Shown piece by piece: positions 1,869 to 61,327 of a stretch of 64,000 nucleotides of DNA (within the stretch, counting starts at the first letter, position 1; every line of letters starts with the position of its first letter). Origin of the DNA: Escherichia coli (GTDB lineage Bacteria > Pseudomonadota > Gammaproteobacteria > Enterobacterales > Enterobacteriaceae); the NCBI RefSeq assembly GCF_050920415.1, contig NZ_CP169309.1; one strand, written 5' to 3'. A program made the translations under genes and the position numbers. A model generated the notes under the pieces. It was given only the letters and a program-made list of their open reading frames with translations, did no database searches and was not told the origin of the DNA.

Positions 1869-3185
1869 TTACGCGAATGCCGCCATGCTGGCTTTCATGG
1901 TGTACACCTCAACCAGCGTGTTGGTGTACTCCTCCAGATAACGGTCGTAGTTGGCGTTATAGGTATCGGTAAGCTGATCGCCTTCGTCCTGAATTTTGCT
2001 CATCTGATCGTCAATGTTCTGCTGGCGCAGGGTGATGATGCCGTTGCTGGAGTCCGTGTAGGTGTTAATCAGATCGTCCATCTGTGCCACCATGCTGTTG
2101 TCGCCAACGAAAATAGAGGTCAGACCGTCAGGATTTTTCGCCATTTCGTCGTTGAACTGGTCGGAGTCAATCTGTAAGTGGCCGTGAGAATCAAGCGTGA
2201 TGCCATAGTCAACAATCGACACCCCGTTGTAGCTGGCATGGGCGATATCATCGAGCTGGTTCGCCAGTGAGCTGAGTCCGGCATCACCCGCAAATACCCC
2301 GGCGCTGGTACTGTCATCACCGTGGGTGGTCAATGAATCAACCGTATCAATCAAGGTGTTATAGGCATCAACAAAGGTCTGTACTTTCTCCTGGCTGGCG
2401 CTGGAATCTTCGCTGATGTTAAAGGTAGTGAGATCGCTGTCAGAATCGCTGACTTCGGTAAAAGTCATGGTGACGCCGGGGATCACATCATCAAAGGTGT
2501 TGCTGCTATTGGTGATGGCGGGCCCCGTGGCACTGCCGAGATGAATAATCGCGTCCTGAGCGGAGGAAACATCCGTAGCAACGGGCGCGCTGGCGCTGTC
2601 GTTGCTGGCATCATGCCCCGTTACGCTCACCGAAAACGCGCTCTGCGCCCCGGTGCTATCCGAGGTGAGCATAATGGTGGTGGTGCCATCGGTTTTTACC
2701 AGTGCCGCTGAAACGCCGGGGTTATCGTCAGAGTCGTTAATCGCATTCACCAGCTCGCTGGCGTCGATAAAACCGTCGCCGTCACCGTTCTGATCCGCCG
2801 CCGCCAGGTCGATATCCATGGTGCTGTCGCCCATCGTCAGCTCGAAGGTGCCGGTAGCGGAAAAGGCGTCGTCGCCCATACTGAACGTGGTCTGCTGCCC
2901 CTGCGCCAGTTGCTCAACGAAAAATGAGTAGCTTCCCGCCTGTGCCTGCGAGTTAGCGGAAACGGTCGCTGAGTCATTATTGCTGGTGGCGGCAAATGTT
3001 ACCGGGCCGTCGGTATCGCTGTTCAGCGCATCGACGGCACTTTGAAAGTCGCTCAACGCCGAGCTGAGCGTATCCAGGCCGCTGCTTTCGGCATCCAGCT
3101 CCGTTTGCTTCTCCTGCAAATTTGCCGCCTGAGTGGCGACATCCGCATAAGCGATTTCCTGGGCAATAGTTCTTGGGTTAATCAT
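1869..3185 (-). CDS. lafB: Flagellar filament cap protein FliD-like (HAP2)
   Basis: 438 aa; N-terminal coiled-coil, Ser/Thr/Asp-rich central region and C-terminal helical segment typical of FliD; sits between the flagellin and FliS-like genes. Confidence 0.85.
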   Translation of the reverse strand: MINPRTIAQEIAYADVATQAANLQEKQTELDAESSGLDTLSSALSDFQSAVDALNSDTDGPVTFAATSNNDSATVSANSQAQAGSYSFFVEQLAQGQQTTFSMGDDAFSATGTFELTMGDSTMDIDLAAADQNGDGDGFIDASELVNAINDSDDNPGVSAALVKTDGTTTIMLTSDSTGAQSAFSVSVTGHDASNDSASAPVATDVSSAQDAIIHLGSATGPAITNSSNTFDDVIPGVTMTFTEVSDSDSDLTTFNISEDSSASQEKVQTFVDAYNTLIDTVDSLTTHGDDSTSAGVFAGDAGLSSLANQLDDIAHASYNGVSIVDYGITLDSHGHLQIDSDQFNDEMAKNPDGLTSIFVGDNSMVAQMDDLINTYTDSSNGIITLRQQNIDDQMSKIQDEGDQLTDTYNANYDRYLEEYTNTLVEVYTMKASMAAFA

Positions 3186-8988: not shown

Positions 8989-9070
8989 GTTGGATCCTTA
9001 CCGGTAAATCGTGCCGGATAAAAGCGGCGTGAAGTTGGGGATTCTTAAGTGGGAGGGGGTGCGCGCATTG

Positions 9071-16704: not shown

Positions 16705-18171
16705 ATGAGTGATACTGTATCACCAATAAGACCTATGGGGGATGCTATGTCTGAATTTGAATTACTCGTGAAAGATCTTCTTTTAAAATCAGAAGAAGAC
16801 GAGAAAAAGCGACAAGAAAAAGATCGAGAATTAATTTCAAAGGTCCTTGAAATCTATGATCAAAAATATGTTGCAGAACTCTTACGAAAACTAGGAAAAA
16901 ATGAATGGAGCAGAGAAACACTTAACCGTTGGATAAATGGTAAGTGCAATCCTAAGCAATTAACTTCTGCGGAGGAAACTTTACTCCGCAAGATGCTTCC
17001 AGAACCTCCTGAACATCATCCTAACTACACATTTCGTTTTATTGATTTATTCGCAGGGATTGGTGGTATTCGTAAAGGTTTCGAAAACATTGGTGGACAG
17101 TGTGTTTTTACCAGCGAATGGAATAAAGAAGCGGTAAGAACCTACAAAGCTAATTGGTTTAATGATGAACTAAATCATAAATTTAATCTTGATATACGAG
17201 AAGTCACTTTAAGTGATAGAGATGATGTTTCCGAAGTAGAAGCCTATAATCATATAGACAAAAATATTCCAGATCATGATGTCCTTCTGGCCGGTTTTCC
17301 ATGTCAGCCCTTTAGTCTGGCTGGGGTAAGCAAGAAAAACTCTCTGGGGCGTGCACATGGTTTTGAATGTGAGGCACAAGGAACACTATTTTTTGATGTC
17401 GCTCGGATTATTAAATCAAAAAAACCAGCTATTTTTGTGCTTGAGAATGTGAAAAACCTTAAAAGTCATGATAAAGGTAAGACTTTTAAAGTCATCATGG
17501 AAACACTCGATGAATTAGGATATGAAGTCGCCGATGCTGGTGTTACTGGCTCAGATGATCCCAAAATTATAGATGGAAAACATTTTTTACCCCAACATCG
17601 TGAGCGTATAGTGTTGGTAGGATTTCGTAGAGATCTGAATATTCACAAGGATTTCACGTTACGAAACATTAACCGCTTTTACCCTCAAAACAGGCCAACA
17701 TTTGGTGAATTATTAGATCATGATGTTGACGATAAATATATTTTGACTCCAAGGTTATGGGAATATCTTTACAATTATGCAAAAAAACATGCAGCAAAAG
17801 GCAATGGGTTTGGTTTTGGTTTAGTGGATCCTAAAAATCCAGATAGTATCGCAAGGACTCTGTCTGCTCGTTATCATAAAGATGGCTCTGAAATATTGAT
17901 TGATCGTGGCTGGGATAAGGCTGTCGGTGAAATTGACTTTAGTAATCCAGCGAATCAAGAGCATCGTCCAAGAAGACTGACACCTCACGAATGTGCCAGG
18001 CTAATGGGTTTTGAAAAACCAGGGGGAAGACCTTTTAGAATACCTGTATCGGATACACAAGCCTATAGACAATTTGGGAACTCAGTTGTTGTTCCAGTAT
18101 TTGAAGCTGTAGCAAGATTACTAGAACCATATATACAAAAGGCAGTCAATATGCATATTATTAACGATTAA
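16705..18171 (+). CDS. DNA (cytosine-5)-methyltransferase, Dcm/M.EcoRII-like (predicted CCWGG specificity)
   Basis: C5-MTase motifs read directly: [11 protein letters not shown] (motif I), [11 protein letters not shown] (motif IV), ENVKNL (motif VI), [10 protein letters not shown] (motif X). Overall layout closely parallels E. coli Dcm as I recall it. AT-rich gene. Confidence 0.9.
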
Positions 18172-18193
18172 TAATAATTAATTTTCACTATTG

Positions 18194-18216
18194 TGAGGCC
18201 TTTTTATTAAAGGCCT
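18194..18216. terminator. Hairpin between the convergent methyltransferase and endonuclease genes (candidate bidirectional terminator)
   Basis: gaggccttt-ttatt-aaaggcctc: 9-bp perfect stem with 5-nt loop in an AT-rich spacer. Confidence 0.6.
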
Positions 18217-18257
18217 CTAAATATATAATCATGAGTTTTTACAAGTATGTTTTTATA

Positions 18258-19463
18258 TTATACAAAATCTTCATAAAGCGTTATTAACTGTGTAATAAAA
18301 CCATCTAATGTTAATATTTCCTCCCTGATTTCCTCCGGGTATTTTTTATGAAGAGGGGAAGGTACAACCAAGGTGACACCTTCAGCTCTCATTTCGTTAA
18401 ATTGAGCAACAGAGACACCCTCTTGCAAGGTAAACAAATATATCTTGTTGATTTTATTTGCTTCATTAAGCGCCTGTCGCCACCGATCCTTACATGTTGT
18501 TTTTACAGCAAGCATACGGAGTTTTTCTCTTGGAAAGTGATCATCATGGTAAGCTGCCGCTGATGGGAAAAGAAAATCGGGTTTCTTTTTTCCTTCAGTA
18601 ATACATTGAGTAGCAAAATGATGCAGTCCATGCTCAATAAAAATTTGCTCAAGATGTAGCTCCAGTGATTTCCCGGCTCGAGATTTTCTTCTATTACTAA
18701 CAGAGTTAGCCATAGCTATAAAATCATCTACAGAACCAAATCCTTGACGGATGATGTCCAGTACGTGAATTTCTTCAACCATTAGAAAGAGATCATATTC
18801 AATACGGCGGCGTTCTAAAAGTTGGTCATCTGGACTGGTTACGCCTGTTGGGTAATAACCTGCCGCATATTGGATAATATCTAAGCCAGAAGGAAAACTA
18901 TGTTTCCAGCTTTCCGGAATAACATATTCCTTTTGAGAGATTTTTGGCCTTGATGCGAGTACACCAAGTATTTCACTGGCAGGCCCAAACATTAAAGTTC
19001 CTGGAATGATCTCCCCAACAGCTGATTCCAGTACATCCTCTTCTTCTGGGCTTACACAAACCCATACATCAACACTTTTGCTGTCTCTCCCAGGCTCATG
19101 TTCAAACGCAAGCACAGACAAAGCACCTGTATTTTCCGGATCTTGTAGGGGACTGCCAGCCCCCCACCGAGTGATACGTTTTTCATTTCTTGTTTGCCCG
19201 AAATACTTATTATTGTAGTAAATAGCGCGAACCTCACTGTCTACACATTCATGAGAGGAATAAGTTGCGCGCAATAAAACCGAAGGATTTTTTTCTGACG
19301 TATGATCTATAGATGGGAAAAGTTCACCGACGATACCGGAAGGGATATATACCCCCACTTGATGCCCTCCTGTTGCACCAGTGTCGTTTGCTGAAAGACG
19401 TTTGATATAGAGATAATTGTTACCACCGACCTTATCAAGCAGCCAATCTTGTAATCCTGACAT
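18258..19463 (-). CDS. Type II restriction endonuclease, EcoRII-like
   Basis: 401 aa, convergent with the Dcm-like MTase. N-terminal …YIKRLSANDTGATGGHQVGVYIP… and overall length match my recollection of R.EcoRII (~400 aa, two-domain). Not verified by alignment. Confidence 0.75.
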   Translation of the reverse strand: MSGLQDWLLDKVGGNNYLYIKRLSANDTGATGGHQVGVYIPSGIVGELFPSIDHTSEKNPSVLLRATYSSHECVDSEVRAIYYNNKYFGQTRNEKRITRWGAGSPLQDPENTGALSVLAFEHEPGRDSKSVDVWVCVSPEEEDVLESAVGEIIPGTLMFGPASEILGVLASRPKISQKEYVIPESWKHSFPSGLDIIQYAAGYYPTGVTSPDDQLLERRRIEYDLFLMVEEIHVLDIIRQGFGSVDDFIAMANSVSNRRKSRAGKSLELHLEQIFIEHGLHHFATQCITEGKKKPDFLFPSAAAYHDDHFPREKLRMLAVKTTCKDRWRQALNEANKINKIYLFTLQEGVSVAQFNEMRAEGVTLVVPSPLHKKYPEEIREEILTLDGFITQLITLYEDFV

Positions 19464-24049: not shown

Positions 24050-24152
<103 letters not shown>

Positions 24153-24367
24153 AACAGCGCACTTATCTACCCTTCGATTTTAAATACATCTCTTTATGGC
24201 TGGTGAATCGGTAAAGTCGTAGATTGTGGGGGAGCGATCTTTATGAATTCTGAAAAAACCCTGAATCTTGCTAAACATATTGCTTATCATAAATATAGGT
24301 TACACACTATAAAAATTACTGCGTAATTTAACATCTTGCCTAAAAATGATAGAGCGTAAACGATAAT

Positions 24368-25189
24368 ATGACTTCTGATAAAAAAGTAACTTCCGGTACG
24401 ACAAGCCAGAAACAAAACAACATTGTCACTCAAAAAATATCACGCCAGAAGGAATTGTTTCTATTATTTTGGGTTGATGAGTCCGATGATAGCCGACGTT
24501 CTATTTTTGAAGAAGCATGTCTGACGCGTTATTTCAATATCCTTTATTCCCCCGAGTATAAAAAAGAAACACAGATAGTTTATCATTTATCAATTAACAC
24601 ATTTAATCAAATCAAAGAAATATTAGAAATCTTTATAAACAAGAATGGAGGTAAAACTAAAGCAAAGGTTAAAGAAGTCAGTTTATTCTCACATGGGGGG
24701 CCAATTCATGGTCCTACAACCTCAAACTCTATAAATACACCTTCCGTGCCTAAATACCCACAACAAATGGACATATCCGGAGGATGGGATTCAATTGATT
24801 TTAACTGGTCAAACAATGCTATGTTTGTTATGTATGGTTGTCGCACTAGTTATGCAAGTGATGATTCAGGACAAGGTTTTGCCAGTAAATTATCCCTATT
24901 AGATAATTTTAAGGACGTGAATGTCTGGGGTCAAACAGAAAGTACTTATCCATCTTATTTCCCAGATATCAGGACAACGTCGATTATGAGGTCAATAAAT
25001 ATAGGTTGGTCTTTTTCACCAACATATATGGTTGCCAATTCTGAAGGTCAAGGATGGGATGCATTATTCCCGGATAATCGAAATCCATTAAAAGCTCTCC
25101 CTATGCAGTGTTATAATAATGGGACATTGATTTTAACCTGCGATCAAAGCAATTTTAATGATCACCGGAAGAATAAATCAAATGATTAG
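24368..25189 (+). CDS. Hypothetical protein with a caspase-like (clan CD peptidase-type) His…Cys dyad; AT-rich
   Basis: 273 aa; hydrophobic strand + SHG (VSLFSHGGP, His109) and, 49 residues later, hydrophobic strand + GC (AMFVMYGCRT, Cys158), the arrangement of caspase/CHAT-type catalytic dyads. Inferred by eye only. No signal peptide. Confidence 0.45.
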   Translation: MTSDKKVTSGTTSQKQNNIVTQKISRQKELFLLFWVDESDDSRRSIFEEACLTRYFNILYSPEYKKETQIVYHLSINTFNQIKEILEIFINKNGGKTKAKVKEVSLFSHGGPIHGPTTSNSINTPSVPKYPQQMDISGGWDSIDFNWSNNAMFVMYGCRTSYASDDSGQGFASKLSLLDNFKDVNVWGQTESTYPSYFPDIRTTSIMRSINIGWSFSPTYMVANSEGQGWDALFPDNRNPLKALPMQCYNNGTLILTCDQSNFNDHRKNKSND

Positions 25190-25721
25190 CATTGTATTGA
25201 GAAGCTTTATTTTATTATTCATAATAATAGTGTATCCGGATTATAATAAAAACCCACCTGCCTTTGAAGTATATGGGGAAAATGACATACTTAAGGATAT
25301 GGTTATTAATATGAAAACTTATAGATACCATAGTAAGGAAAACTCTTCCCCCACAGCTATAGTGCAAACCATCCTTTTTAAAGGAAATATACAGCAAGTT
25401 TTTGAAAGCAATGACATGGGTGGTGCGAGCTTCTTTTTTTCTTATAATAATAAGGTTGAAACGCTGGTAACAGACGCTTTCTTTTTAAATAAAAAATTAG
25501 ACAAACTGCATGATGCAAATATTTTTGAGGTTATAAAGCATAAGGAAAACATCGTTATTAGATATTACAAGTGCAAAATTGAATATATGCAAAGAGAAAA
25601 ATTTATCGAAATAGAGATATCAACAAACAAAAATAGTTATTTTAACAAGAATGGAATAAAACAAAAAGATACAAATAAATATAACACATATTTCTTCAAT
25701 TACTTTGAGTCTCAAAAATAA
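25158..25721 (+). CDS. Hypothetical small membrane-anchored protein, partner of the upstream gene; AT-rich
   Basis: 187 aa; N-terminal hydrophobic segment (ISIVLRSFILLFIIIVY), Lys/Asn-rich remainder; overlaps the upstream gene (alternative start 25182 gives an 8-nt overlap). Confidence 0.45.
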   Translation: MITGRINQMISIVLRSFILLFIIIVYPDYNKNPPAFEVYGENDILKDMVINMKTYRYHSKENSSPTAIVQTILFKGNIQQVFESNDMGGASFFFSYNNKVETLVTDAFFLNKKLDKLHDANIFEVIKHKENIVIRYYKCKIEYMQREKFIEIEISTNKNSYFNKNGIKQKDTNKYNTYFFNYFESQK

Positions 25722-25724
25722 ATT

Positions 25725-26129
25725 TTATTTTGTCATGCGCGCCCTCCTAATCACCTCAATAATCCCCGTCGTCGACACCGACGGCGTGCGGGGGAAATAG
25801 ACCACCTCACAAATATACGCGAAGCTATCAAACTTCCCTGCCCAGTCATCGCCCATCACCAAAACATCCGCACTGTACCCCCGCAGATATTCCGCTTTCT
25901 GCGCCAGCGATTCCTCGAGAAATACGCCATCCACGCACGCCAGCCCGGCGATAATCGCCATGCGGTCATCCTGAGGGTAAACCGGTGCCCTGCCCTTTTT
26001 GGCAATATTTAAGGCGTCGGACGACACGCCAACCAGCAGCCGTTCGCCCAGCGTGCGGGCGCGTTGTAAAAGGCGCAGATGACCGACATGAAACACATCG
26101 AAGGTGCCGAAGGTGATGACCGTTTTCAT
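25725..26129 (-). CDS. Cytidylyltransferase, TagD/glycerol-3-phosphate cytidylyltransferase-like
   Basis: Start at internal Met (MKTVITFGTFDVFHVGHLRLL…); HxGH nucleotidyltransferase motif; 134 aa; begins 3 nt after the fliJ stop. Confidence 0.75.
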   Translation of the reverse strand: MKTVITFGTFDVFHVGHLRLLQRARTLGERLLVGVSSDALNIAKKGRAPVYPQDDRMAIIAGLACVDGVFLEESLAQKAEYLRGYSADVLVMGDDWAGKFDSFAYICEVVYFPRTPSVSTTGIIEVIRRARMTK

Positions 26130-47706: not shown

Positions 47707-48219
47707 TCATTGTGATATTTCCATCTCTGTGATTAATACCGGATACGCATTTAATTGCAGAGTTTGCACGAAATTATCGCAGATAACTGGCAATAACAAT
47801 AACCCATCAGCCCGCTGCTGTAATACCTCCATTCGTTCTACTGATTCAACATTAACAACCAAACCAAGGGCATTTAGCGATTTAAGGATCTCCAGATGTT
47901 CACTCATCCAGCGCAGAGAAAAAGGATCATCACCAATTATAAAAACAGGCCCCCAGCCGGTTAATAACTGGCGTTTCATTACGGAACCAGGATGAAGTCG
48001 AGTACATATTACAGGAAATACCCCCTGTTGCGATGGTTCCGATGATGTGGATAATTCAGAAATATTTTCCATTGTTAGTGAAGAATTAACATCCATTAAT
48101 AATGGTGAAACAACCTCACTTTCCTTGCTAGTAATGGCTGCACTAATCTGAGAGGAAAATAACAATATTATTACGTATAAACTCATTTTTAACATAACAA
48201 ATTCAATCCGTTTATTCAT
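47707..48219 (-). CDS. Hypothetical secreted/membrane protein, AT-rich
   Basis: 170-aa ORF with N-terminal hydrophobic signal-like segment (MSLYVIILLFSSQISAA); no assignable motif. Confidence 0.45.
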   Translation of the reverse strand: MNKRIEFVMLKMSLYVIILLFSSQISAAITSKESEVVSPLLMDVNSSLTMENISELSTSSEPSQQGVFPVICTRLHPGSVMKRQLLTGWGPVFIIGDDPFSLRWMSEHLEILKSLNALGLVVNVESVERMEVLQQRADGLLLLPVICDNFVQTLQLNAYPVLITEMEISQ

Positions 48220-48285
48220 GTTATAGAATAATGATGCTATAAATCATCATTAATGTTCAATTATTTAATCACACAGTTTAAAAAA

Positions 48286-48789
48286 TCATTGACCAATGTG
48301 AATTGGCAATGTACCACTCAAGTTAAAATCACTGAATATTTTATCAATTTCTCTTGCAGTTTCTATATATTTAACCTCTTTCGTACTTGCATTATAAATA
48401 GCCCAAGCCTCGGGATGGGATGTTCCACCAAACCTTACAAAAAAACTTGATTTCATATTATTATATAAATTAACATCAGGAAAAGGATCTTCTCCAAAAT
48501 TAGTAGTATTGAATAATGAAAGTTCGTATCGCTTAGAAAATTCTATTGGTAGGATAGCTTCACTGCCATCAATAGCATTCATCCAGAGTTTGTTACCATT
48601 ATATTCCAACAATAATCTCTGTTTTGCATGTGTTTTATCTCGTTCTTTAACGACAGCGAATACCTTTTTAACAACCTGCTGTGCGGATGGTCCTATTGTA
48701 TTACCAAAAGATGGCAACCCGATTTTGCCATAAACACTCTCCTGAATGAAATAAATATCCGTTTTATCGGCCTCGACAATATCTACCAT
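48286..48789 (-). CDS. Hypothetical cytoplasmic protein, AT-rich
   Basis: 167-aa ORF; no signal peptide; no assignable motif. Confidence 0.45.
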   Translation of the reverse strand: MVDIVEADKTDIYFIQESVYGKIGLPSFGNTIGPSAQQVVKKVFAVVKERDKTHAKQRLLLEYNGNKLWMNAIDGSEAILPIEFSKRYELSLFNTTNFGEDPFPDVNLYNNMKSSFFVRFGGTSHPEAWAIYNASTKEVKYIETAREIDKIFSDFNLSGTLPIHIGQ

Positions 48790-49101
48790 TTATCCCTCCA
48801 AACAAGACCTGACTCCAGGACAAGAGCATAGTGTGTAGTAAACACATCATGCTCTTGCCCTGACCATTGAAATAACAACTTTCGTTTGTTTACTGTACGC
48901 TGTCTAAATAGCTGCGTGGAATAAAGTTGCACTTTTTATCATCCCTTGTAGAGCAAGATTACGAAAGCCCGCCCCCGCAAGGGCTGACGCGAGGTAGTCT
49001 CTGTCCGCAGCTGCTTTTCACATCTTACATCTTGCCCCTGCCTTGAGTATCTTATCTTTCGTTAAAATATTAATAGCGATCTTCCGTATCCCTGAAAATA
49101 A

Positions 49102-49781
49102 TTATGCTGCATTTCCTCTTCTTATTTTGAAGTCGTCTTTATTCATTACCACTTCCAGATGCCAGTGCAATTTATTCTCCACTTGCCAGTGATTTCGGTT
49201 CGCTGTGGCGAACTTCTCTGCGGTTAAATCAGCAGAAATGCTATAATATCTGACCGTCATTTCGGGATTTTTCTTTTGTTCTGCTATTATTGAGCGAAAT
49301 GAGACTGCCATGCATAATTTCTTCAGCCCTTTCCATTCAAACGTAAAATCAATAAATTCATCAGAGACATGCAAACAATATGAAGACGGATTTTAATGAC
49401 ATAAGTTGCTCCCTTGTGACGAGTTTTATCATAAGAGTGCCGGAGCGTTTTTCCATCAATTGCAATGACGTCTTTATCATCTGAAGAATGACATTCACGC
49501 ATCCGGTTAATAAAGCATTCGTGAAATTTTGCAGGACTGATACATGATACAACTCTGGCAATAGTATCGTGAACAGGAATACCATTTTCAAAATCACCAT
49601 ATTGCTTCAAAAAATCGAGATGAGTTTCCCCGAAATCCTCTATATCTTCCCAGCCTTCTGCACCCGAAATAACGGCGCAAATAGTCAACAGTAGAATATC
49701 CGATAATTTATGCTCCACTTTCCAGGCTTGTCTGTAATCGGGGATAATAGAAATATGTTCCATCAATTTTTTAAGTTCCAT
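49102..49781 (-). pseudogene. ISAs1-family (H-repeat-associated) transposase, internally deleted/frameshifted
   Basis: N-terminal 152 aa ([51 protein letters not shown]…) and a separate 90-aa C-terminal piece (…[30 protein letters not shown]) lie in different frames; the catalytic middle is missing. Confidence 0.7.
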
Positions 49782-49904
49782 TTTGTTCTCCTTAATTATG
49801 TAAGGAGTATTTGATCATGTATAAGCAATAAAAAACAGCTTCAGGTAATGAGGAATATCTCAATTTTTAAACATAAAATGCGAATTATTTAGTACAAAAA
49901 AGCA

Positions 49905-51796
49905 GCGTTAAGTGAGTAGGCCACCGGAACCTCCCCGACAGCCTCTCGCAGAACCGTACGTGAAACTCTCGCTTCATACGGCTCCCGTCAGGCAAACGCG
50001 CTTCCTGGTCCTGCTTTCCAGTGGGCAAACAACTCCGGCTTCTCTTTTGACAGCCTTTCCATTAGCTGACACGCCTTCGTCTTTCTATACCGCAGGGTTT
50101 TATATTTCTTTCTCGCCCACGCAATCAGCGTCAGATTAATATATCTGCATACTTTCTTCATCGCTGATTTGTGGTATCTCGCGTAATAATTCAGCCACCC
50201 CGATATTATCGGATTCAGCCACTTCGCAATATCTTCGAGACTCATCTCCACCCTGCGTCTGATCCACAGTTTCCTGAGTTTTCCAATCATGCCTTTCTGC
50301 GCACGGTTACTCGCCGCCGGGCTGAAACTCGTAAAGAGGTTTCCCCGCCGGTGGTTACGTGCTCTTCGCGCTCTGAACGTATACCCCAGAAAATCAAACT
50401 GCACTGTTTCATGGTTCGCCTGTCGTTCGCTGTCTTTGCAGTAAACTACTTTCGTTTTCTCCGGATGTAATTCCAGTCCACATTCCTGAAAACGTTTTGC
50501 CAGCTTATTCAGTAATTCCTCTGCCTGTTGTTTACTGCCACAATGAATTAATCCATCATCTGCATAACGGCACAGGGAATTTCCGGATAATGTAACGTCA
50601 GCCATTTATCAAACACATAGTGCAGAAATAAATTCGCCAGTACCGGGCTGATGACTCCACCCTGTGGCGTACCTTTATTTCTTTCCTTCAGTGTTCCATC
50701 CGGCATCTGCACCGGCGCTGTCAGCCACCGGCGAATAGACAGTCTTACCCATTTATCCGCACAATGTTTATCTACTGCCCTGAGTAATAAATCGTGGGAG
50801 ATATTATCGAATAACCCTTTAATATCAAACTCAAGACACCAGTCGTATTGCCAGCAACGTTTTCTGGTGACTGCTATTGCATCCAGCGCTGATTTTCCAT
50901 GCCGGTATCCGTATGAATCATTCAGGAAATAACGCTCCACTAATGGTTCAAACGTTACCAGCACCGTCATCTGCGCTATTCGATCGCTTACTGTCGGTAT
51001 TCCTAAAAGTCTTTTGCTGCCATCCTTCTTCGGAATTTCCACCGCACGCACTGGCGGCGGCATCCAGCTTCCCGACGATAACCTGTTCCAGATTTTGTAC
51101 AGATTTCCTTTCAGATCCCGCTCAAAATCTTTCAGCGTCTGGTTATCCACTCCGGCAGCTCCGGCATTCGCCTTTATCCGCCGGTACGCTTCCACCACAT
51201 GCAATTTACTGACCTGAAACGGTTTTGTCTGTTCACACACAGCCTCCTCCTGCCTACAGTTGGGCTGTGATGCAGACTGCCCGACGCTGTCCCTTCGCTC
51301 CACGTTCATTACAAACGCTTCCTCACTACTACGAACAGCTCTGCCCCGGTTTCGCACATCGATACTCTCATACTCATAATTTCGGTTATTTGTATTTCTC
51401 TCTTGAAATTGCGACGACCGGTTCCCGTAGTTCCTGCAAAGAGCCTGATACAGCGTCATGCCTGCTATACACCGGACACCATTCACGCAGCATTCGGAAT
51501 TCACCCGTAAATTAATCCCGGCGGTATCACGAAACCTCCGGTTTTGATGTCACTTAGGACTAACGACGTTTCAACACAGGTTCGGGTTTACTCATCTCAC
51601 TGTATCTCACATAGGATCAGATCTCGTCTGATCGTTCCCCCTGCGCTCACTACCATGGCTCTTTACCACAGCAGCCGGGGTTGTTTGGGACCGACTTCCG
51701 ACAGCAGATCCCGGTGGGCCTGCCACCATCTCTTCACAAGCTTATGCTTATTACATGCAAAACGTCCCGTTTTGCATCTTTGTGCCTACGGCACAC
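49905..51796 (-). mobile_element. Bacterial group II intron (about 1.9 kb)
   Basis: 5' end GTGTG on the minus strand (complement of cacac at 51792-51796); RT/maturase ORF; domain V-like hairpin gagccgtatgaagcgagagtttcacgtacggttc (complement of 49951-49984) just after the ORF stop. 3' boundary is approximate. Confidence 0.65.
49988..51309 (-). pseudogene. Group II intron reverse transcriptase/maturase, frameshifted
   Basis: RT motifs (…GIPTVSDRIAQ…, …TPQGGVISPVLANLFLHYVFD…) in ORF 50548-51504; YADD and maturase domain X (…GWLNYYARY…) in ORF 49988-50605. The two parts are in different frames. Confidence 0.7.
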
Positions 51797-51942: not shown

Positions 51943-54042
51943 TTAACCTCGGCTCACCGTTTTCGATTCCATCCAATAAATGACCCGGTTGGATGTGGGC
52001 TGATCGCCAACAACTTTGCCATCTGCAGAGATTAGCTTCAGCTCTTTATTAGCCTCATCACCGAAGTAAATCATGCGGTAGCGAAAATAACCGCCCCAGG
52101 GTTCGCGTCCACCCAGCGAACTTTGCATAAACCAGGCGCGGGAGTCGTGAACCTGGTCATCATAGAGAGCCAGTAATTCAGCGCAGGGCTGAGTTCGCGT
52201 TCGCGTTCCCGTTCCCAGTGAATCAATAAAAAATTGTGGATAGAGTCCGTTTCCCATAGCCTTAATTTGTTGATATTCCTTTGCTTCATCATCGCCATTA
52301 ATCAGATACACCGGATATTTAGGAATGACATCCACAAGAATCTGAATGGCTTTCTCCGTGACGCTGCCGTTAATATCGCGCGTCCATCCTTTATAATCGC
52401 TCTGAAATTCTCGGGCTGCCTCTCGCAATTGGTACTGAGCGTTCGTCGGGTCAAGGATAGGTATGCCCTGATTACTTTCATCAAGTGTGCCATTGCCTTT
52501 CTGCGTGTTCGCCCGCTCTTTTTCGATATTTTCCATTTGTTCTTCGCGCGCTTGGGCCTCTTTATCAAGTCCATCTTTATCCAGCTGTGGCGCCTTAATA
52601 TAAAAAGGTTGCACAAGAAGGCTGTTGTTCGCATAGCGACCGATACGCCAGGCGGTGATCCAGCCGATCTGATCGCTAATTGCGCTTTCAAGAACCTGGG
52701 CAAGTTGATAGGGGTGATAACCTTCCCTCGTATCAATCATTTCTTCTGTACCCTGCAAGGTGGTGTTCAGCAGCGTTTGTCGCCAGATGTTGAAGCGTTT
52801 TGTTAATGAATTAGCAATCGTAAATTCCTTTACGCTAGAAGGACTCATAATTCGCAGAGGCGACACACCTTTTATTAATGGAGTAACAAATTTAGAATAA
52901 ACAGCAAGTGGTGCTCCTGAATCAAATGCAGCAAGATACATATCATGCAGGGCTATCTGAGAAAGAATTTCGCCTGAGTCACCACAGGACTTCCCCTGAT
53001 CGCGAACGGGATAGCCACCACCGACATCAGAGTGCATCCCCGGATAGATAACTTCCTCTGCATATAAAGGATAATTGCCTTCAGGACGACGGATTGAATC
53101 CAGCGGAAAGCACAACCGCTGTTCATGCGCAGCGACGAAGTGGCGGCAGCATTTAATCAGGCCGGGAAACTGCGTCTCATCAGGGAGTTGCTGAGTACTA
53201 TCGGCCCATCCCATATGACCGGCTGCGCCCGGTAAAACATGCGCCGCCCCCACAGAAGCTACGGTATCCAGCAGCCCCAAAAACTCAATACTGACAGCTA
53301 AACCGGCCAGCATCACCTGTTGCCTCTGCGGGCAAGCTAACTGAGTCAACCAGTTAACAAAAGTTCGTGCTTCCGCTGCGCCACGGGAAAATCCGTAGAT
53401 AAACAGCCTTACGTTTAGCAGGCGCGGACTAGCTTGTTCTAACTGTCCCTGTAATTTTTCCAGGTAGGGGTTAATCACATTGCGACGATTCACTTCACCA
53501 GTCATCGGCCAAGGAGCACGCATAAGAGGAATGTGCTCTTTTGCCACCTTCTCATTCAGTCCATTTTGGGTTGGGTCAATAGCATAGCTAAGGGCATCCA
53601 CGAGACGTAATAATGCCCAATTAATTCGGTCTTCACCACCGGTGGCAAATTCCAGTCCGCTGTTGCTGTAATCCATTTCACCTATCTTGGGAAATGGTGT
53701 GCCTACACCAGGTATGTAATAGGAAAAATACCCAGCATTACGGTCTTTAATACTTGCGTGGAATAATTTCGCAATATTGGTTGGATGAGAGGCTTTTGTG
53801 TCATTATATTCATTATTATTTGTACCATCAAAAAACAGACTAATATGCAGACTTTGACTACATGTAAAGCCAATTCTAAATCCAGCCTGTTTACTACAGT
53901 TGGTTTTGTGCTCCTCTGTTTTATTGATTTGTTTCAGGTAGTTCGCGTTTACCTGCGCTTCAGATAATATTAATCGCCCATCTTCAGGGAACACCGGGGG
54001 GGCATAACACGGAAAAGCCAGACCACTTATTTCGCTGGACAT
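51943..54042 (-). CDS. tle1: Type VI secretion phospholipase effector, Tle1-family (DUF2235 alpha/beta hydrolase)
   Basis: Start at internal Met (MSSEISGL…), 699 aa; N-terminal …LFFDGTNNN… motif and GxSxG nucleophile elbow (IYGFSRGAAEA) characteristic of Tle1/DUF2235. Confidence 0.75.
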   Translation of the reverse strand: MSSEISGLAFPCYAPPVFPEDGRLILSEAQVNANYLKQINKTEEHKTNCSKQAGFRIGFTCSQSLHISLFFDGTNNNEYNDTKASHPTNIAKLFHASIKDRNAGYFSYYIPGVGTPFPKIGEMDYSNSGLEFATGGEDRINWALLRLVDALSYAIDPTQNGLNEKVAKEHIPLMRAPWPMTGEVNRRNVINPYLEKLQGQLEQASPRLLNVRLFIYGFSRGAAEARTFVNWLTQLACPQRQQVMLAGLAVSIEFLGLLDTVASVGAAHVLPGAAGHMGWADSTQQLPDETQFPGLIKCCRHFVAAHEQRLCFPLDSIRRPEGNYPLYAEEVIYPGMHSDVGGGYPVRDQGKSCGDSGEILSQIALHDMYLAAFDSGAPLAVYSKFVTPLIKGVSPLRIMSPSSVKEFTIANSLTKRFNIWRQTLLNTTLQGTEEMIDTREGYHPYQLAQVLESAISDQIGWITAWRIGRYANNSLLVQPFYIKAPQLDKDGLDKEAQAREEQMENIEKERANTQKGNGTLDESNQGIPILDPTNAQYQLREAAREFQSDYKGWTRDINGSVTEKAIQILVDVIPKYPVYLINGDDEAKEYQQIKAMGNGLYPQFFIDSLGTGTRTRTQPCAELLALYDDQVHDSRAWFMQSSLGGREPWGGYFRYRMIYFGDEANKELKLISADGKVVGDQPTSNRVIYWMESKTVSRG

Positions 54043-54584
54043 GTTGCAGGTTCCTTCATCTCGCGGGGTTCTTTGATAGGATAATTTGGTGTACCATATT
54101 TCTGGCAGACGGTTGTCACTTTTATCTGATTGCACGATAGAAAATGAACGGTCAGGCCACAAAGCTCAGCATCGTATTCCGGGATATCAACAATTACTTT
54201 ATATTTTTGATAATTTGCAGCATGTTTAGCATACGCATCTTCTTCATAGCCAAAACCTTCTTTTTTCATTGCAATAGGTTCAAGGGGGTTCGGGTCTACT
54301 TCCCACTCAATCCGGGCCTTTAATCCCACACGCCACTTATCTGGCAGCATAACGCAACAATATCCTCCACCGTCCCCGAATGGAGAAATATTTGGCCCAC
54401 CGTAACCATTGATGTGTAAATAATTTATAGCCTTATCCGTATGATTTATCCCATTAATATCCACAGCAGTGTAATCTCTGCTATTTTTTGCCATTGAACA
54501 GCCTGATACTGCAAATAAAATCATTAGAGAATAACATTTGAAAATCGCTCTCATACTGATACTTTTCCTTATTTCGCTGGACAT
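54027..54584 (-). CDS. Lipoprotein, putative Tle1 immunity protein (Tli-like), tandem copy 3
   Basis: 185 aa; lipobox (…LFAVSGCSMA…); paralogous to the two upstream copies, with a divergent central segment. Confidence 0.7.
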   Translation of the reverse strand: MSSEIRKSISMRAIFKCYSLMILFAVSGCSMAKNSRDYTAVDINGINHTDKAINYLHINGYGGPNISPFGDGGGYCCVMLPDKWRVGLKARIEWEVDPNPLEPIAMKKEGFGYEEDAYAKHAANYQKYKVIVDIPEYDAELCGLTVHFLSCNQIKVTTVCQKYGTPNYPIKEPREMKEPATCPAK

Positions 54585-55123
54585 GTTGCAGGTTCCTTCA
54601 TCTCACGGGGTTCTTTGATGGGATAATTCGGTGTGCCATAACCCTCGCAGACGGTTGTCACTTTTATCTGATCGCATGGCAGAAAATGTACGGTCAGGCC
54701 ACAACGTTCAGCGCCGTATTCCGGGATATCAACAATTGTTGAATATTTTCTAAAACTGTTTAGCGCAACTTTCTTCCATGCTTCAAATTTCTCCCTGTCC
54801 ACATAACCTGGAGGCAGAGGAGCTGTATTTGGATCAACCTCCCACTCAACCCGGGCTTTTAATCCAGAATGCCACTTATCTGGCAACATAACACAACAAT
54901 ATCCTCCACCGTCCCCGAATGGAGCAATATTTGGACCACCGTAACCATTGATGTGTAAATAATTTATAGCCTTATTCGTATGATTTATCCCGTTAATATC
55001 TCCAGCAGTGTAATCACCGCTATTTCTCGCCATTGAACAGCCTGATACTGCAAATAAAATCATTAGAGAATAACATTTGAAAATCGCTCTCATACTTATA
55101 CTTTTCCTTATTTTGATGGACAT
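54569..55123 (-). CDS. Lipoprotein, putative Tle1 immunity protein (Tli-like), tandem copy 2
   Basis: 184 aa; lipobox; near-identical N- and C-terminal thirds to copies 1 and 3. Confidence 0.7.
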   Translation of the reverse strand: MSIKIRKSISMRAIFKCYSLMILFAVSGCSMARNSGDYTAGDINGINHTNKAINYLHINGYGGPNIAPFGDGGGYCCVMLPDKWHSGLKARVEWEVDPNTAPLPPGYVDREKFEAWKKVALNSFRKYSTIVDIPEYGAERCGLTVHFLPCDQIKVTTVCEGYGTPNYPIKEPREMKEPATCPAK

Positions 55124-55662
55124 GTTGCTGGTTCCTTCATCTCGCGGGGTTCTTTGATGGGATAATTTGGTGTACCATATTTCTGGCAGACGGTTGTCAC
55201 TTTAATCTGATTACACGTTAGAAAATGAATCGTCAGGCCACAAAGCTCAGCATCATATTCCGGGATATCAACAATTGTTGAATATTTTCTAAAACTGTTT
55301 AGCGCAACTTTCTTCCATGCTTCAAATTTCTCCCTGTCCTTATTGCCTGGAGGCAGAGGAGCTGTATTTGGATCAACCTCCCACTCGACCCGGGCTTTTA
55401 ATCCAGAATGCCACTTATCTGGCAGCATAACGCAACAATATCCTCCACCGTCCCCGAATGGACCAATATTTGGTCCGCCGTAACCATTGATGTGTATATA
55501 ATTTATAGCCTTATCCGTATGATTTATCCCGTTAATATCCACAGCAGTGTAATCACCGCTATTTTTCGCCATTGAACAGCCTGATACAACAAATAAAACA
55601 ATTAGAGAATAACATTTGAAAATCGCTCTCATACTTATACTTTTCCTTATTTTTCTGGACAT
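55108..55662 (-). CDS. Lipoprotein, putative Tle1 immunity protein (Tli-like), tandem copy 1
   Basis: 184 aa; lipobox (…LFVVSGCSMA…); 16-nt overlaps link the three copies head-to-tail. Confidence 0.7.
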   Translation of the reverse strand: MSRKIRKSISMRAIFKCYSLIVLFVVSGCSMAKNSGDYTAVDINGINHTDKAINYIHINGYGGPNIGPFGDGGGYCCVMLPDKWHSGLKARVEWEVDPNTAPLPPGNKDREKFEAWKKVALNSFRKYSTIVDIPEYDAELCGLTIHFLTCNQIKVTTVCQKYGTPNYPIKEPREMKEPATCPSK

Positions 55663-55975
55663 GTTGCAGGTTCTTTTACTTTGAGAGATTTTAATTGATG
55701 GGTGTTATTTCTACGACAACAAAGTTTTGACAAAGAAGCAAATAAAATGCATATCTTTTGATTGTCACACATTGGAATATCGACAGAGCATTGATGATAT
55801 TACGCAAAATATATTGCAGCCAAGTGAACTGACATTACGATCGAACACAAATGCAACATGATGGATACTACCATTACATGTCGAGCTTGATTTTCCGCTT
55901 ATTTTACGATTATCTCTTGATATTAACAGCTACGGACTTTTAAACAGATAAATCTCCCCGTACATCACTACAATA

Positions 55976-56740
55976 TTATCCTTCGAAGTCCCGCAAAGCT
56001 CCAAAATATTTCGCGTCATTGGCCCTGAAAGCAATATCAAGACAGTGGGCAAAATAGCTTTCCTGACTGAGTTCACTGACTGCTTTTTCCTTCATCAGGG
56101 CTTCAGCGTCGCAGATACAGCCCATCAATCCCACCTGTACATCATCCACCCGATTCATCTCCGGGTTGTCAGTAAGCCTGCGTTCTGGTGAAAAACTTCC
56201 TGATTTCCAGTTAATCTCTCCATCACGGTCTAACCAGCTCCAGAACAACGCAATATCAGTAAATGTCGCCTGCTGCTCGTTGGTCAAAACATGTGTGAAC
56301 AGCAAAGGGAACACCCGATTATCATAGTAACGCAGCAATCCGGTCTGTTCTTCCCACTGAACCTGTGACAATACCTGAAGATGCCGCCCCAGCAGGTCGA
56401 ATGTAAGAGGGGATATCAACAAAGTAAGACGCGGCGTATCAGCAAATGACGCCATCAGTTGCGCCAGAAATTTGCGATGACTACTGAGCGCAAAGTACAG
56501 GCGTAACACTACAGGGGAATACTCCATCGTCTCAGCTTCAGGCGTTCCTTCAAACAGGGCATACCAGTGAATGGCTGGCGACAGATGAAGCATATCATTT
56601 TGCAAAGGTTGGTCTGTTCCAGCCTGGTCAACAAGCACATCTATGTAATCCAAACCAGCGGCAGAACAGAATGATTCAGTCTGCTTCAGCCAGATAATAT
56701 ATTTGTCTTGATCGGTAGCGTGTGGCGATACTGTTATCAT
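55976..56740 (-). CDS. DUF4123-like type VI effector adaptor/chaperone, putative
   Basis: 254 aa, directly downstream of vgrG; …LLRYYDNRVFPLLF… resembles the DUF4123 (R/Y)FYDPRV signature as I recall it. Confidence 0.5.
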   Translation of the reverse strand: MITVSPHATDQDKYIIWLKQTESFCSAAGLDYIDVLVDQAGTDQPLQNDMLHLSPAIHWYALFEGTPEAETMEYSPVVLRLYFALSSHRKFLAQLMASFADTPRLTLLISPLTFDLLGRHLQVLSQVQWEEQTGLLRYYDNRVFPLLFTHVLTNEQQATFTDIALFWSWLDRDGEINWKSGSFSPERRLTDNPEMNRVDDVQVGLMGCICDAEALMKEKAVSELSQESYFAHCLDIAFRANDAKYFGALRDFEG

Positions 56741-56752
56741 TGTCTTTCTCCC

Positions 56753-57447
56753 TTATCCACGAGGCGCAAAAGCGGCGGCGGCTTCCTGCGCCCTTTTCAG
56801 GCACTCCTTACACACCGATTTTTCTGGTGCTTCCTCATCCTCATCGTTGTTATCATTCTGATCGGACGACGCATTACTGTCATTTTGCTCAGCCGCTAAA
56901 CTTTTATCATCTGCCAGCGCTTTCAAAACCGCCGGTTGTAGCGTCGGCACCGGCGTTCCCGGACTACCGCCGCTATTGAGATTGATTTTCGGCCCGACGA
57001 TGTCCACGCCCCCTGAATGGATGACCACAAACGAACCACCCACCTTCAGGGTGATTTTACCGCCACTCTCCAGTACGATTTCATCCCGGACCTTCATTCC
57101 CAGCGCACCGGTAATCTTCCTCGCCAGGTCGCCCTTCACCTCCAGACTGTGCTTTCCCTCCACCAGACTGATATGGTTCCCCGTCGTCTTATGCTCCTGC
57201 TTCCCTTCCACCGTCACTTTACGGTCGTTTCTGACATACAGGCCGTCATCGTGACTCACGCTCACCGTCCGGTCATTCGTCACCTTCAGCGTCTGGTCAT
57301 TACGTACCGTTATGCGCCGGTCGTTCGCCACCGTGATACTCTGGTCGTGGCCCCCTTCTTTTCTGGTGCCGACCTCAACCGTCTGCCCCTTCACCACCCT
57401 TATCTTCTGGTCGTTACCGATGGTCTCCGTATGGTCATGCTTCACGT
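56753..57447 (-). pseudogene. vgrG: vgrG, C-terminal part (gene interrupted by an IS21-family insertion)
   Basis: 230-aa frame with VgrG beta-helical repeats (…ITVANDRRITVRNDQTLKVTNDRTVSVSHDD…); in frame with the N-terminal part once the IS and one target-site duplication copy are removed. Confidence 0.8.
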
Positions 57448-57547
57448 GTCAGCGCCAATGATATAAGACAGTAATTCACCATTTGGATTGTCCGCTCCAC
57501 CCAACATGTTGTTTCCTTAAGGTTCCTACACCACAAAGGGAACACTC

Positions 57548-58718
57548 ATGCTGAGCAGAGAGGACTTTTACATGATAAAGCAAATGCGCCAGCAAGGTGC
57601 GTATATTGTTGATATTGCCACTCAGGTTGGTTGCTCTGAGCGGACTGTCAGACGGTACCTGAAATACCCGGAACCTCCGGCCAGAAAAACACGCCACAAA
57701 ATGGCCAAACTCAAGCCGTTCATGGACTATATCGACATGCGTCTGGCTGAGAATGTCTGGAACGGCGAGGTCATCCTGGCGGAAATCAAAGCGATGGGTT
57801 ATACCGGTGGCCGTTCCATGTTGCGTTACTACATCCAGCCCAAACGTAAGATGCGGCCATCGAAGAAAACGGTTCGCTTCGAAACTCAGCCCGGTTACCA
57901 GCTACAGCATGACTGGGGAGAAGTTGAGGCTGAGGTTGCCGGGCAACGATGCAGGGTTAACTTCGCGGTTAATACGCTGGGGTTCTCACGTCGCTTCCAT
58001 GTCTTCGCGGCACCAAAGCAGGATGCTGAACATACCTATGAGTCACTGGTCCGCGCCTTTCGCTACTTCGGCGGCAGCGTGAAAACCGTGCTGGTCGATA
58101 ACCAGAAAGCCGCAGTGCTGAAAAATAACAACGGGAAGGTGGTGTTCAACTCCGGGTTCCTGCTGCTGGCCAATCACTATGGCTTCCTGCCACGGGCCTG
58201 CCGTCCACGAAGGGCCAGAACCAAAGGTAAGGTGGAACGGATGGTGAAATACCTCAAGGAAAACTTCTTCGTCCGGTACCGCCGGTTCGACAGCTTCGCC
58301 CATGTTAATCAGCTACTGGAGCAGTGGATGGCTGACGTTGCCGACAGGCGGGAACTTCGCCAGTTCAGGCAGACACCGGAACAGCGCTTCACGCAGGAAC
58401 AGGTGCATCTGCAGGCGCTGCCAGGTACGGACTTCGATACCAGCTACTTCGATATCCGTCATGTCTCCTGGGATGGCTATATCGAGGTTGGCGGGAACCG
58501 TTACAGCGTGCCGGAAAGCCTGTGTGGCCAGCCGGTATCAATACGGATCTCGCTGGATGATGAACTGCGATTTACAGTAATGAGCAACAGGTAGCATCGC
58601 ACCGTCTCTGTTCGGCTGTATACGGCTGGCAGACCGTGCCGGAGCATCACGCCCCACTCTGGCAGCAGGTCAGTCAGGTGGAACACAGGCCGTTGAGTGC
58701 CTATGAGGAGCTGTTGTG

Positions 58719-58719
<1 letters not shown>
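57548..58719 (+). pseudogene. istA: IS21-family transposase istA, frameshifted near the 3' end
   Basis: 348-aa ORF ends at 58594; the expected C-terminus (…WQTVPEHHAPLWQQVSQVEHRPLSAYEELL*) continues in another frame and ends at the TGA overlapping the istB start. Confidence 0.75.
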
Positions 58720-59512
<793 letters not shown>

Positions 59513-59569
59513 TGACCAATAGCGGACATTAAAAATGGCGAAAAACGGCCAATAATCTTGGCGTTGACA

Positions 59570-61111: not shown

Positions 61112-61327
61112 ATGACCTCCCTTGATTCACTTACAGAACACTGGTTGTCTACTGACCATGCAGCAGAGGGTGCCAGTACAGCGTTACGCTCATATTCAGG
61201 TACGCTACCGCCCGGGTTCCCGGCATCCACCATCTCCCTCATGAAAGCGTAACTCCTTACTGACACTCATTTTTTACACGTACAAAAACAACATCCTGCA
61301 CTAAGGCAGGATGTTGTTGACTCAGAT

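Follow-up and report, generated by a model that had tools for sequence, protein, structure and literature searches.

The window analyzed here is a 64,000-nucleotide segment of an Escherichia coli chromosome (contig NZ_CP169309.1) that carries the Flag-2 locus for lateral flagella. Variable region 1 (VR1) of this locus contains two overlapping genes on the plus strand, which we call ORF1 (24368-25189, 273 amino acids [aa]) and ORF2 (25182-25721, 179 aa). We consider it likely that the two genes form an orphan effector-immunity cassette with type VI secretion system (T6SS)/polymorphic-toxin character, carried in the cargo hotspot that VR1 represents. ORF1 is predicted to be a cysteine peptidase toxin with a caspase-hemoglobinase fold (clan CD), in a free-standing cargo form, and ORF2 is its predicted cognate immunity protein, with an N-terminal membrane anchor (aa 2-17) and a putative periplasmic domain. 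An earlier note on this DNA had proposed a protease-based toxin/immunity pair, a defence pair, or a flagellin-processing enzyme with a membrane partner. Of these functions, the toxin/immunity pair is the only one that fits the occurrence of the ORF1 domain as an Rhs C-terminal toxin, as an Hcp fusion and as vgrG-linked cargo, together with the exported nature of its partners. Two E. coli "hypothetical proteins" would in this way gain a concrete assignment, as a predicted caspase-fold protease toxin and its envelope-located antidote.

Fold and putative catalytic dyad of ORF1

ORF1 lacks a signal peptide, as originally proposed: its N terminus is not hydrophobic, and the best 19-residue window of its hydropathy profile has a mean of 0.53. 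The earlier note had also pointed to a His and, 49 residues later, a Cys, each ending a hydrophobic strand, and both were confirmed. The predicted catalytic residues, His109 in LFSHGG (SHG motif, codon 24692-24694, plus strand) and Cys158 in MYGC (YGC motif, codon 24839-24841, plus strand), were assigned from the sequence, the family alignment and the strands of a structural model. His109 is kept in 84/86 and 38/38 family members, and Cys158 in 85/86 and 38/38. The other near-invariant positions of the family are T53-R54, E103, G115-P116, Q133, G188-Q189, S196, R202, and Y220.

A structural model of ORF1 built with AlphaFold2 (AF2) from 6 sequences had a predicted local distance difference test score (pLDDT) of 54.6. 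The model was redone with 86 sequences and then reached a pLDDT of 92.7 and a predicted template modeling score (pTM) of 0.88. Its elements run beta(28-36), alpha, beta(69-76), alpha, and beta(99-107) into S108-H109, followed by beta(147-155) into G157-C158, alpha, and beta(185-189). His109 and Cys158 thus close consecutive core strands, with His before Cys, as in clan CD. A Foldseek comparison with the PDB returned clan CD peptidases for all of the best 49 matches, with a probability of 0.97 to 0.99 for the best dozen. The alpha/beta sandwich of this clan is common to caspases, legumain, gingipain, clostripain, CHAT, separase and the cysteine protease domains of large toxins, and ORF1 is predicted to adopt it. 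The nearest neighbours in the AFDB are uncharacterised proteins of Superficieibacter, Salmonella salamae, Acinetobacter, and several Flavobacteriia; their annotations include DUF4347, Rhs-associated core and DUF6443, and "caspase family" appears further out. The fold retrieved by AF2 and Foldseek, together with the conserved order and strand positions of His and Cys, supports the caspase-like clan CD assignment that had been made from the sequence.

At the sequence level, a Pfam scan of ORF1 gave a marginal match to DUF4347 (PF14252; E value of 2.4e-4, 21.4 bits, residues 70-178 against model positions 25-116 of 164), and the same domain was found at E<=1e-3 in 4 of 86 ORF1 relatives. Scans of ORF1 and ORF2 against NCBIfam and PADLOC gave no match even at E<=1, and searches of PDB sequences with single sequences and with profiles gave chance matches only, for the toxin domain as well as for ORF2. 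The statement of the earlier note that neither protein can be placed in a flagellar family agrees with the Pfam and NCBIfam scans, in which no flagellar family was matched. Ser108 was considered as a nucleophile in a GxSxG-like elbow, as in a lipase, and was rejected: the residue two positions before the Ser is hydrophobic, not small, and the structural neighbours are Cys/His peptidases, Rhs toxins and DUF4347 proteins, with the sole "alpha/beta hydrolase" at AFDB rank 33. Both genes are under purifying selection, with ratios of nonsynonymous to synonymous substitution rates (dN/dS) of 0.15 to 0.18 for ORF1 and 0.11 to 0.21 for ORF2, which indicates that they are real genes.

Delivery contexts and exported partners

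A word-indexed protein search returned 6 relatives of ORF1 and 4 of ORF2, and an exhaustive profile search of 1.84 billion representatives returned 292 ORF1-family proteins. The ORF1 domain forms the extreme C terminus of Bacteroidota-type Rhs/YD-repeat proteins of 1312 to 3576 aa (P0060, P0108, P0139, P0142, and P0150), in which the Rhs_assc_core model (TIGR03696) ends directly before it. In dozens of proteins, the domain directly follows the Rhs core motif (DPxG...), i.e., it is the variable C-terminal tip behind a conserved delivery region. DUF6443, RHS repeats, TssD, Hint and LysM are the N-terminal fusion partners found in the family; two members are fusions to TssD, the Hcp of Bacteroidota, and the N-terminal portions of the fusions find their matches among solved shells of the Rhs, YenC2 and teneurin-like types. 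Many "short" sequences of the family are C-terminal pieces of Rhs proteins; in them, the domain comes right after DPxG, at the position of ORF1 residue 28. The free-standing proteobacterial members carry a leader of ∼25 to 45 residues ahead of the domain, clearly similar to that of ORF1 only among the closer relatives, and the Rhs core stands in its place in the fusions. In ORF1, this leader comprises aa 1-27 (24368-24448, plus strand; MTSDKKVTSGTTSQKQNNIVTQKISRQ), as delimited from the N termini of 86 family members, and has a pLDDT of 49 to 61 in the model. It may be a loading or spike-binding segment.

Several free-standing homologues are linked to vgrG. A complete vgrG lies directly upstream of the homologue in loci L011, L012 (Entomomonas), and L017, and in L006, L007, and L010 the contig starts inside the 3' end of a vgrG that is directly upstream of the homologue; one of these contig-edge VgrG fragments shares 59% identity with the Entomomonas VgrG over residues 629-835 of the latter. 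The VgrGs of L011, L012, L006, L007, and L010 have a common C-terminal extension made of 1 to 3 repeats of ∼60 to 70 residues, with the pattern ...F.F.DD...PYANT.Y.A...DG....G.TD..GYT..FY... and no Pfam match. This extension is possibly an effector-docking domain.

The partner gene had been described as overlapping ORF1. The overlap was confirmed, but the start given in the list of open reading frames (25158, 187 aa) is an alternative upstream ATG and had to be corrected to the ATG at 25182, which is used by the Prokaryotic Genome Annotation Pipeline (PGAP) and matched by all homologues. The start of ORF2 and the stop of ORF1 thereby overlap by 8 nucleotides (25182-25189, plus strand; ATGATTAG). 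The same overlap is found in L001, L003, and L005, and the overlapping arrangement in homologous cassettes suggests translational coupling. The N-terminal anchor of ORF2 is strongly hydrophobic (ISIVLRSFILLFIII, mean hydropathy of 2.8) and the protein contains 11% Lys, 11% Ile, and 11% Asn, in agreement with the membrane anchor and the Lys/Asn-rich composition noted previously.

ORF2 has no match in Pfam, NCBIfam, PADLOC or the PDB, its relatives belong to no Pfam family, and a profile of seven partners retrieved only 12 clusters in 5.8 billion proteins. ORF2 homologues lie directly downstream of ORF1 homologues, mostly overlapping them, in seven independent contexts (L003, L005, L006, L010, L011, L012, and L017). 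Pairwise comparisons of ORF2 with its homologues in L003, L005, L006, L010, and L011 gave E values from 6e-3 to 4e-12, whereas the L012 partner was assigned by a match of the family profile to P0166 and the L017 partner by an N-terminal motif read by eye. Identity to ORF2 is 54% for the second E. coli allele, 37% for Superficieibacter, and ∼25% for the vgrG-linked loci (L006, L010, L011, L012, and L017), and this drop from 54% to 25% accompanies a drop in toxin identity.

A lipobox or an N-terminal hydrophobic anchor was present in all 11 downstream partners examined. Lipoboxes are clear in L003 (LPGC), L006 (LTGC), and L012 (LNGC), and the others have hydrophobic anchors. Partners unrelated to ORF2 are also exported or anchored, namely, a 130-aa lipoprotein after an Rhs toxin (L015) and an anchored protein after an Hcp fusion (L016), and the DUF943 protein that follows the second Entomomonas effector likewise has an export signal. 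Such exported partners follow the pattern of immunity proteins against periplasm-acting T6SS effectors and not that of cytoplasmic antitoxins or chaperones. As read from the sequences, the anchors and lipoprotein signals suggest a periplasmic immunity protein and an envelope target.

We propose the following mechanism. ORF1 would be made in the cytoplasm, without a signal peptide, and its core (about residues 28 to 260) would adopt the caspase-hemoglobinase fold with the His109/Cys158 dyad and act as a cysteine endopeptidase or possibly a transpeptidase. Relatives of the domain are predicted to reach target cells by three routes, as cargo encoded downstream of vgrG, as the cleaved tip of an Rhs/YD cage, and as a fusion to Hcp (TssD). 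ORF1 itself would be delivered by a T6SS, with the 27-residue leader possibly serving for loading, and would act on an envelope substrate in the periplasm of the recipient. ORF2, anchored in the inner membrane (its relatives being lipoproteins) and exposing its domain to the periplasm, would bind the toxin, whether incoming or delivered by siblings, and block it; it is this predicted location that implies a cell-envelope substrate. A LysM fusion in one ORF1 relative and an M23 peptidase domain annotated in one AFDB neighbour hint at the peptidoglycan layer as the target region but prove nothing.

We see about an even chance that ORF1 and ORF2 represent the first antibacterial, periplasm-acting clan CD effectors and an unrecognised family of membrane-anchored or lipoprotein immunity proteins, present in Proteobacteria (vgrG cargo) and Bacteroidota (Rhs tips and Hcp fusions) and directed at an envelope protein or peptide, perhaps a peptidoglycan-linked one. 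Novelty is most likely for the immunity family and for the implied site of action in the periplasm. Among the papers searched, none was found to describe the ORF1/ORF2 family or an antibacterial clan CD T6SS effector; those that mention DUF4347, or clan CD together with type VI secretion, do not deal with this family. If true, this proposal would add a T6SS killing chemistry distinct from that of the NlpC/P60 amidases and a bacterial-warfare branch to the caspase superfamily. The ORF1 family would also offer a tractable entry, in E. coli, to the questions of whether clan CD proteases are used by bacteria against bacteria and of what they cut in the envelope.

Two of the vgrG-linked loci contain additional genes. 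In Entomomonas sp. E2T0 (L012, 5497-11079), two ORF1-family effectors of 306 and 303 aa stand in tandem behind a single vgrG, and each has an exported partner to itself, namely, an ORF2-like lipoprotein (true start at 8935, not at 9001 as called) and the DUF943 protein mentioned above. This arrangement looks like an effector duplication with immunity switching, and the locus is on an element resembling an integrative and conjugative element (ICE), with integrase, TraI, ParA, and DnaB genes. Downstream of the vgrG-effector-immunity set of the metagenomic contig L006, positions 2492-3109 encode a 205-aa protein with a weak match to YopT-type Peptidase_C58 (Pfam E value of 5.7e-4; TIGR01586 E value of 4.8e-4), possibly a second, unrelated protease effector.

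A mobile cassette in variable region 1

The pair is flanked on its left by genes for a FliB-like methylase and a GT2 glycosyltransferase and on its right by a convergent glycerol-3-phosphate cytidylyltransferase-like gene, followed by fliJ, fliI, and fliH. Its AT-rich composition, noted previously, is evident in the composition profile, in which GC content is 0.30 to 0.36 across 24200-25800 and 0.53 to 0.63 in the flanking genes; overall, the pair is at ∼33% GC and the flanks are at 55 to 62%. The bacterial interspersed mosaic element (BIME) that had been reported ahead of the pair was also found: two inverted repetitive extragenic palindromic (REP) units lie at ∼24051-24150 after the stop codon of the upstream glycosyltransferase gene (inverted repeat I3, arms at 24068-24082 and 24115-24129), and they mark the left edge of the insertion slot. 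The empty site of strain RM10809-3 has the same BIME, with ∼35 bp besides it separating the convergent genes, and nearly every E. coli genome gives matches limited to REP. Alignment with the empty site L008, the composition profile and a repeat search place the inserted cassette at approximately 24165-25735 (plus strand), i.e., ∼1.57 kb.

The AT-rich leader upstream of ORF1 (24151-24367, plus strand), read from the sequence, is carried by the cassette and presumably contains its own promoter. A sigma-70 consensus scan gave no plus-strand candidate within 24151-24367; the plus-strand matches of the region were all inside open reading frames (11 sites versus 7.7 expected), and a sigma-70/terminator scan of the cassette region did not rise above the background of AT-rich DNA. 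No direct or inverted terminal repeats and no target duplication were detected at the cassette edges by the repeat search and the alignment with the empty site. The cassette contains no mobility gene, and the window contains no tRNA.

Occupancy of the slot is patchy. The VR1 glycosyltransferase is present in 1,279 of 5,426 complete E. coli genomes, and the pair is found in 151 of these (129 at >=80% coverage). The cassette is therefore lacking from ∼88% of E. coli Flag-2 loci and is carried by ∼3% of complete E. coli genomes. Outside E. coli, Superficieibacter electus has the same overlapping pair (66% identity for ORF1, 37% for the partner) between an AP-endonuclease gene and a fructose phosphotransferase system (PTS) operon, with no flagellar genes nearby. 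Patchy occupancy, empty sites and this non-flagellar locus together argue for a mobile cassette of two genes that is complete in itself and against a component of the flagellum. The 1.57-kb cassette is 100% identical in strain N96 and 99.9% identical in MFDS1022581, and the adjacent glycosyltransferase is 95.6% identical in N96 and 99.9% in MFDS1022581, which is also the best match over 6.1 kb of surrounding sequence. The majority of cassette-bearing genomes (139) have an allele ∼94.5% identical to that of the window. Cassette alleles and flanks thus seem to be mosaic, and recombination seems to carry the alleles from one Flag-2 background to another.

According to De Maayer et al., VR1 is a hotspot of cargo gained by horizontal transfer, with EcoRII restriction-modification genes among the examples, and the VR1 insert of E. 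fergusonii Flag-2 encodes VgrG-Rhs-Imm26 (PMC6993521). In strain H105 (L009, 4139-6548), the slot holds another cargo, three small AT-rich open reading frames that encode proteins of 133, 182, and 115 aa without a Pfam match, the first of them Cys-rich (CPVCG...CGSC); these may be orphan immunity or other conflict genes. In another E. coli assembly (GCA_910664915; L013), a Fic-domain gene follows the pair.

Known systems and alternative explanations

The closest described systems are Tce1 (PA0256, DUF4347; PDB 9qpe) and Tce2 of Pseudomonas aeruginosa, putative cysteine proteases carried as H3-T6SS cargo in Hcp3 rings, which are the first T6SS caspase-like examples and were described structurally in 2026 (PMC13323088). 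Their His/Cys dyads, 54 and 50 residues apart, superpose on the dyad of the TcdB cysteine protease domain (CPD), and a C115S substitution abolishes the toxicity of Tce2 in yeast (PMC13323088). ORF1 shares with them a caspase-like alpha/beta core with His before Cys at a similar spacing (49 residues), a small size, an association with T6SS at the level of the family and the lack of a signal peptide, and some of its relatives are fused to Hcp (TssD). Unlike Tce1 and Tce2, the ORF1 family comes with an exported partner gene (11/11 examined) and also includes Rhs C-terminal toxins and vgrG-linked cargo. The Tox-Caspase domains predicted by Zhang, Aravind and colleagues in 2012 at the C terminus of polymorphic toxins are caspase-like with an H, C dyad; the class is a computational grouping without biochemistry, and its immunity families are Imm36 and Imm57 (PMC3482391). 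Compared by description, the two classes agree in fold, in the H, C dyad, in forming the very C terminus of Rhs-type polymorphic toxins from Bacteroidetes and Gammaproteobacteria, and in having T6SS among their routes, but neither Imm36 nor Imm57 is found downstream of ORF1, and the ORF2 family matches no Pfam family. The CPDs (peptidase C80) of MARTX toxins and of Clostridioides difficile TcdA and TcdB are internal self-processing domains that are activated by inositol hexakisphosphate (InsP6) and act in the eukaryotic cytosol, whereas the ORF1 domain is terminal or free-standing and is paired with a predicted immunity gene. The genetic layout resembles that of the Tae/Tai and Tle/Tli pairs, in which the gene of an effector lacking a signal peptide, often located downstream of vgrG, overlaps the next gene, which encodes an immunity protein that is periplasmic or a lipoprotein; a Tle1-Tli1a-Tla1 set with such a logic is present in the same window. 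In contrast to the Tae amidases, which are papain-like NlpC/P60 enzymes with Cys before His, ORF1 has a caspase-hemoglobinase fold with His before Cys.

Several points weigh against the proposal that the window pair is a T6SS effector with its immunity protein. No vgrG, hcp, PAAR or adaptor gene adjoins the pair, and ORF1 carries no Rhs, Hcp or PAAR fusion. T6SS genes are first met ∼26 kb from the pair, in an island that extends from 26 to 38 kb away. The vgrG of this island, at a distance of ∼31 kb, is interrupted by IS21 and has no C-terminal repeat domain of the kind seen in the VgrGs that accompany ORF1 homologues; a search for the repeat motif (PY[AS][NS]T..) across the window found none. 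With no such gene adjoining and a distant, split vgrG, the window pair is an orphan cassette, and its delivery is a prediction. The similarity of ORF1 to DUF4347/Tce1 is remote (12% identity and a weak Pfam E value), and we infer the juxtaposition of His109 and Cys158 from the fold topology of the model and the published Tce1/TcdB superposition. In the window ORF2, the lipobox Cys of its relatives is replaced (IVYPDYNK), and a signal anchor remains. Tce1 and Tce2 lack immunity genes and showed no toxicity in E. coli, and eukaryotes are their proposed targets (PMC13323088). Finally, peptidase activity, toxicity, ORF1-ORF2 binding and the substrate are all predictions for this family.

One alternative is that ORF1 is an anti-eukaryotic effector like Tce2, with ORF2 as a chaperone, an adaptor or an unrelated membrane protein. 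Tce1 is the closest solved relative, neither Tce protein harms E. coli while Tce2 harms yeast, and clan CD toxin domains of the CPD type typically act in the host cytosol. We nevertheless regard this explanation as unlikely, since the partner gene is conserved, overlapping and co-diverging down to ∼35 to 43% toxin identity, export signals are present in each of the different partner families that accompany the Rhs and Hcp forms and the second Entomomonas copy, whereas chaperones are cytoplasmic, and Tce1 and Tce2 have no such neighbours. Another explanation, to which we assign a very low probability, is that the pair is a decaying remnant kept for ORF2 as an orphan immunity gene, ORF1 being no longer delivered or functional in E. 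coli. The missing vgrG next to the pair and the IS21-broken one nearby agree with this view, and orphan immunity genes are common in the polymorphic-toxin literature. Yet at least 129 genomes have a full-length ORF1 whose dyad is intact, its dN/dS indicates a constraint no weaker than that on ORF2, and the 8-nucleotide coupled arrangement is preserved. As judged from the sequences, the intact ORF1 and its low dN/dS argue that the window copy is still functional.

The two other functions offered by the earlier note fared no better. An anti-phage or abortive infection system, in which ORF1 would be an infection-triggered caspase/CHAT-like protease and ORF2 a membrane effector or sensor, would agree with the AT-rich, patchily distributed cassette and with the defence or conflict genes of the same locus (a Dcm-type restriction-modification pair in the window, HicAB in N96, and the Fic gene by the pair in another strain). 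However, neither protein matched a PADLOC family, ORF1 is a bare protease domain with a 27-residue leader and no sensor, SAVED, TPR or nucleotide-binding domain was found, and the Rhs/Hcp fusions, the vgrG linkage and the exported lipoprotein partners are the signature of a secreted toxin, making the defence option highly improbable. Least probable is a Flag-2 accessory role, either as a protease that processes lateral flagellin, its glycan or its glycerol-phosphate decoration with a membrane partner or as a Flag-2 export substrate. The pair does lie amid flagellin-modification genes (for the FliB-like methylase, the GT2 glycosyltransferase and the glycerol-3-phosphate cytidylyltransferase-like protein), and De Maayer et al. 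raise the secretion of Flag-2 cargo by the flagellar system (PMC6993521). Against this role stand the absence of the pair from most Flag-2 loci, with intact empty sites, its location away from flagellar genes in Superficieibacter and within vgrG islands elsewhere, the use of the domain as an Rhs/Hcp toxin tip in Bacteroidota, and a GC content ∼20 points below that of the locus. The effector-immunity reading, under which the pair is hotspot cargo and not a part of the flagellum, removes this false lead.

The T6SS island occupies the right end of the window (51943-63051). Its minus-strand genes encode a Tle1-like phospholipase (51943-54162), three Tli1a immunity proteins in tandem (54027-55662), and the Tla1 chaperone (55976-56740). 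Next comes a vgrG that appears to be split into a C-terminal part (56753-57445) and an N-terminal part (59426-61108) by istA/istB of IS21 (57548-59402), and then an Hcp gene (61328-61846, minus strand) and a TssB-like gene (62497-63051, plus strand). The spike for Tle1 is probably inactivated in this strain.

Two other regions of the window contain acquired DNA. Between flgA and flgM, positions 16705-19463 hold a Dcm-type DNA cytosine methyltransferase gene (16705-18171, plus strand; PRK10458 E value of 2e-275) and a convergent 401-aa open reading frame, whose counterpart in N96 carries the annotation type II restriction endonuclease. The region is partly AT-rich, with GC content down to 0.33 on the 3' side, and is an EcoRII-like restriction-modification insertion; 21 Escherichia strains were reported to have insertions of this kind in Flag-2 (PMC6993521). 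Mobile-element debris is found at positions 47707-51504, between yafV and the T6SS island. An ICE PFL_4695-family protein (47707-48219) and part of an ISAs1 transposase (49323-49781) are encoded there, along with the reverse transcriptase/maturase of a group II intron, which is split into two open reading frames (49988-50605 and 50548-51504).

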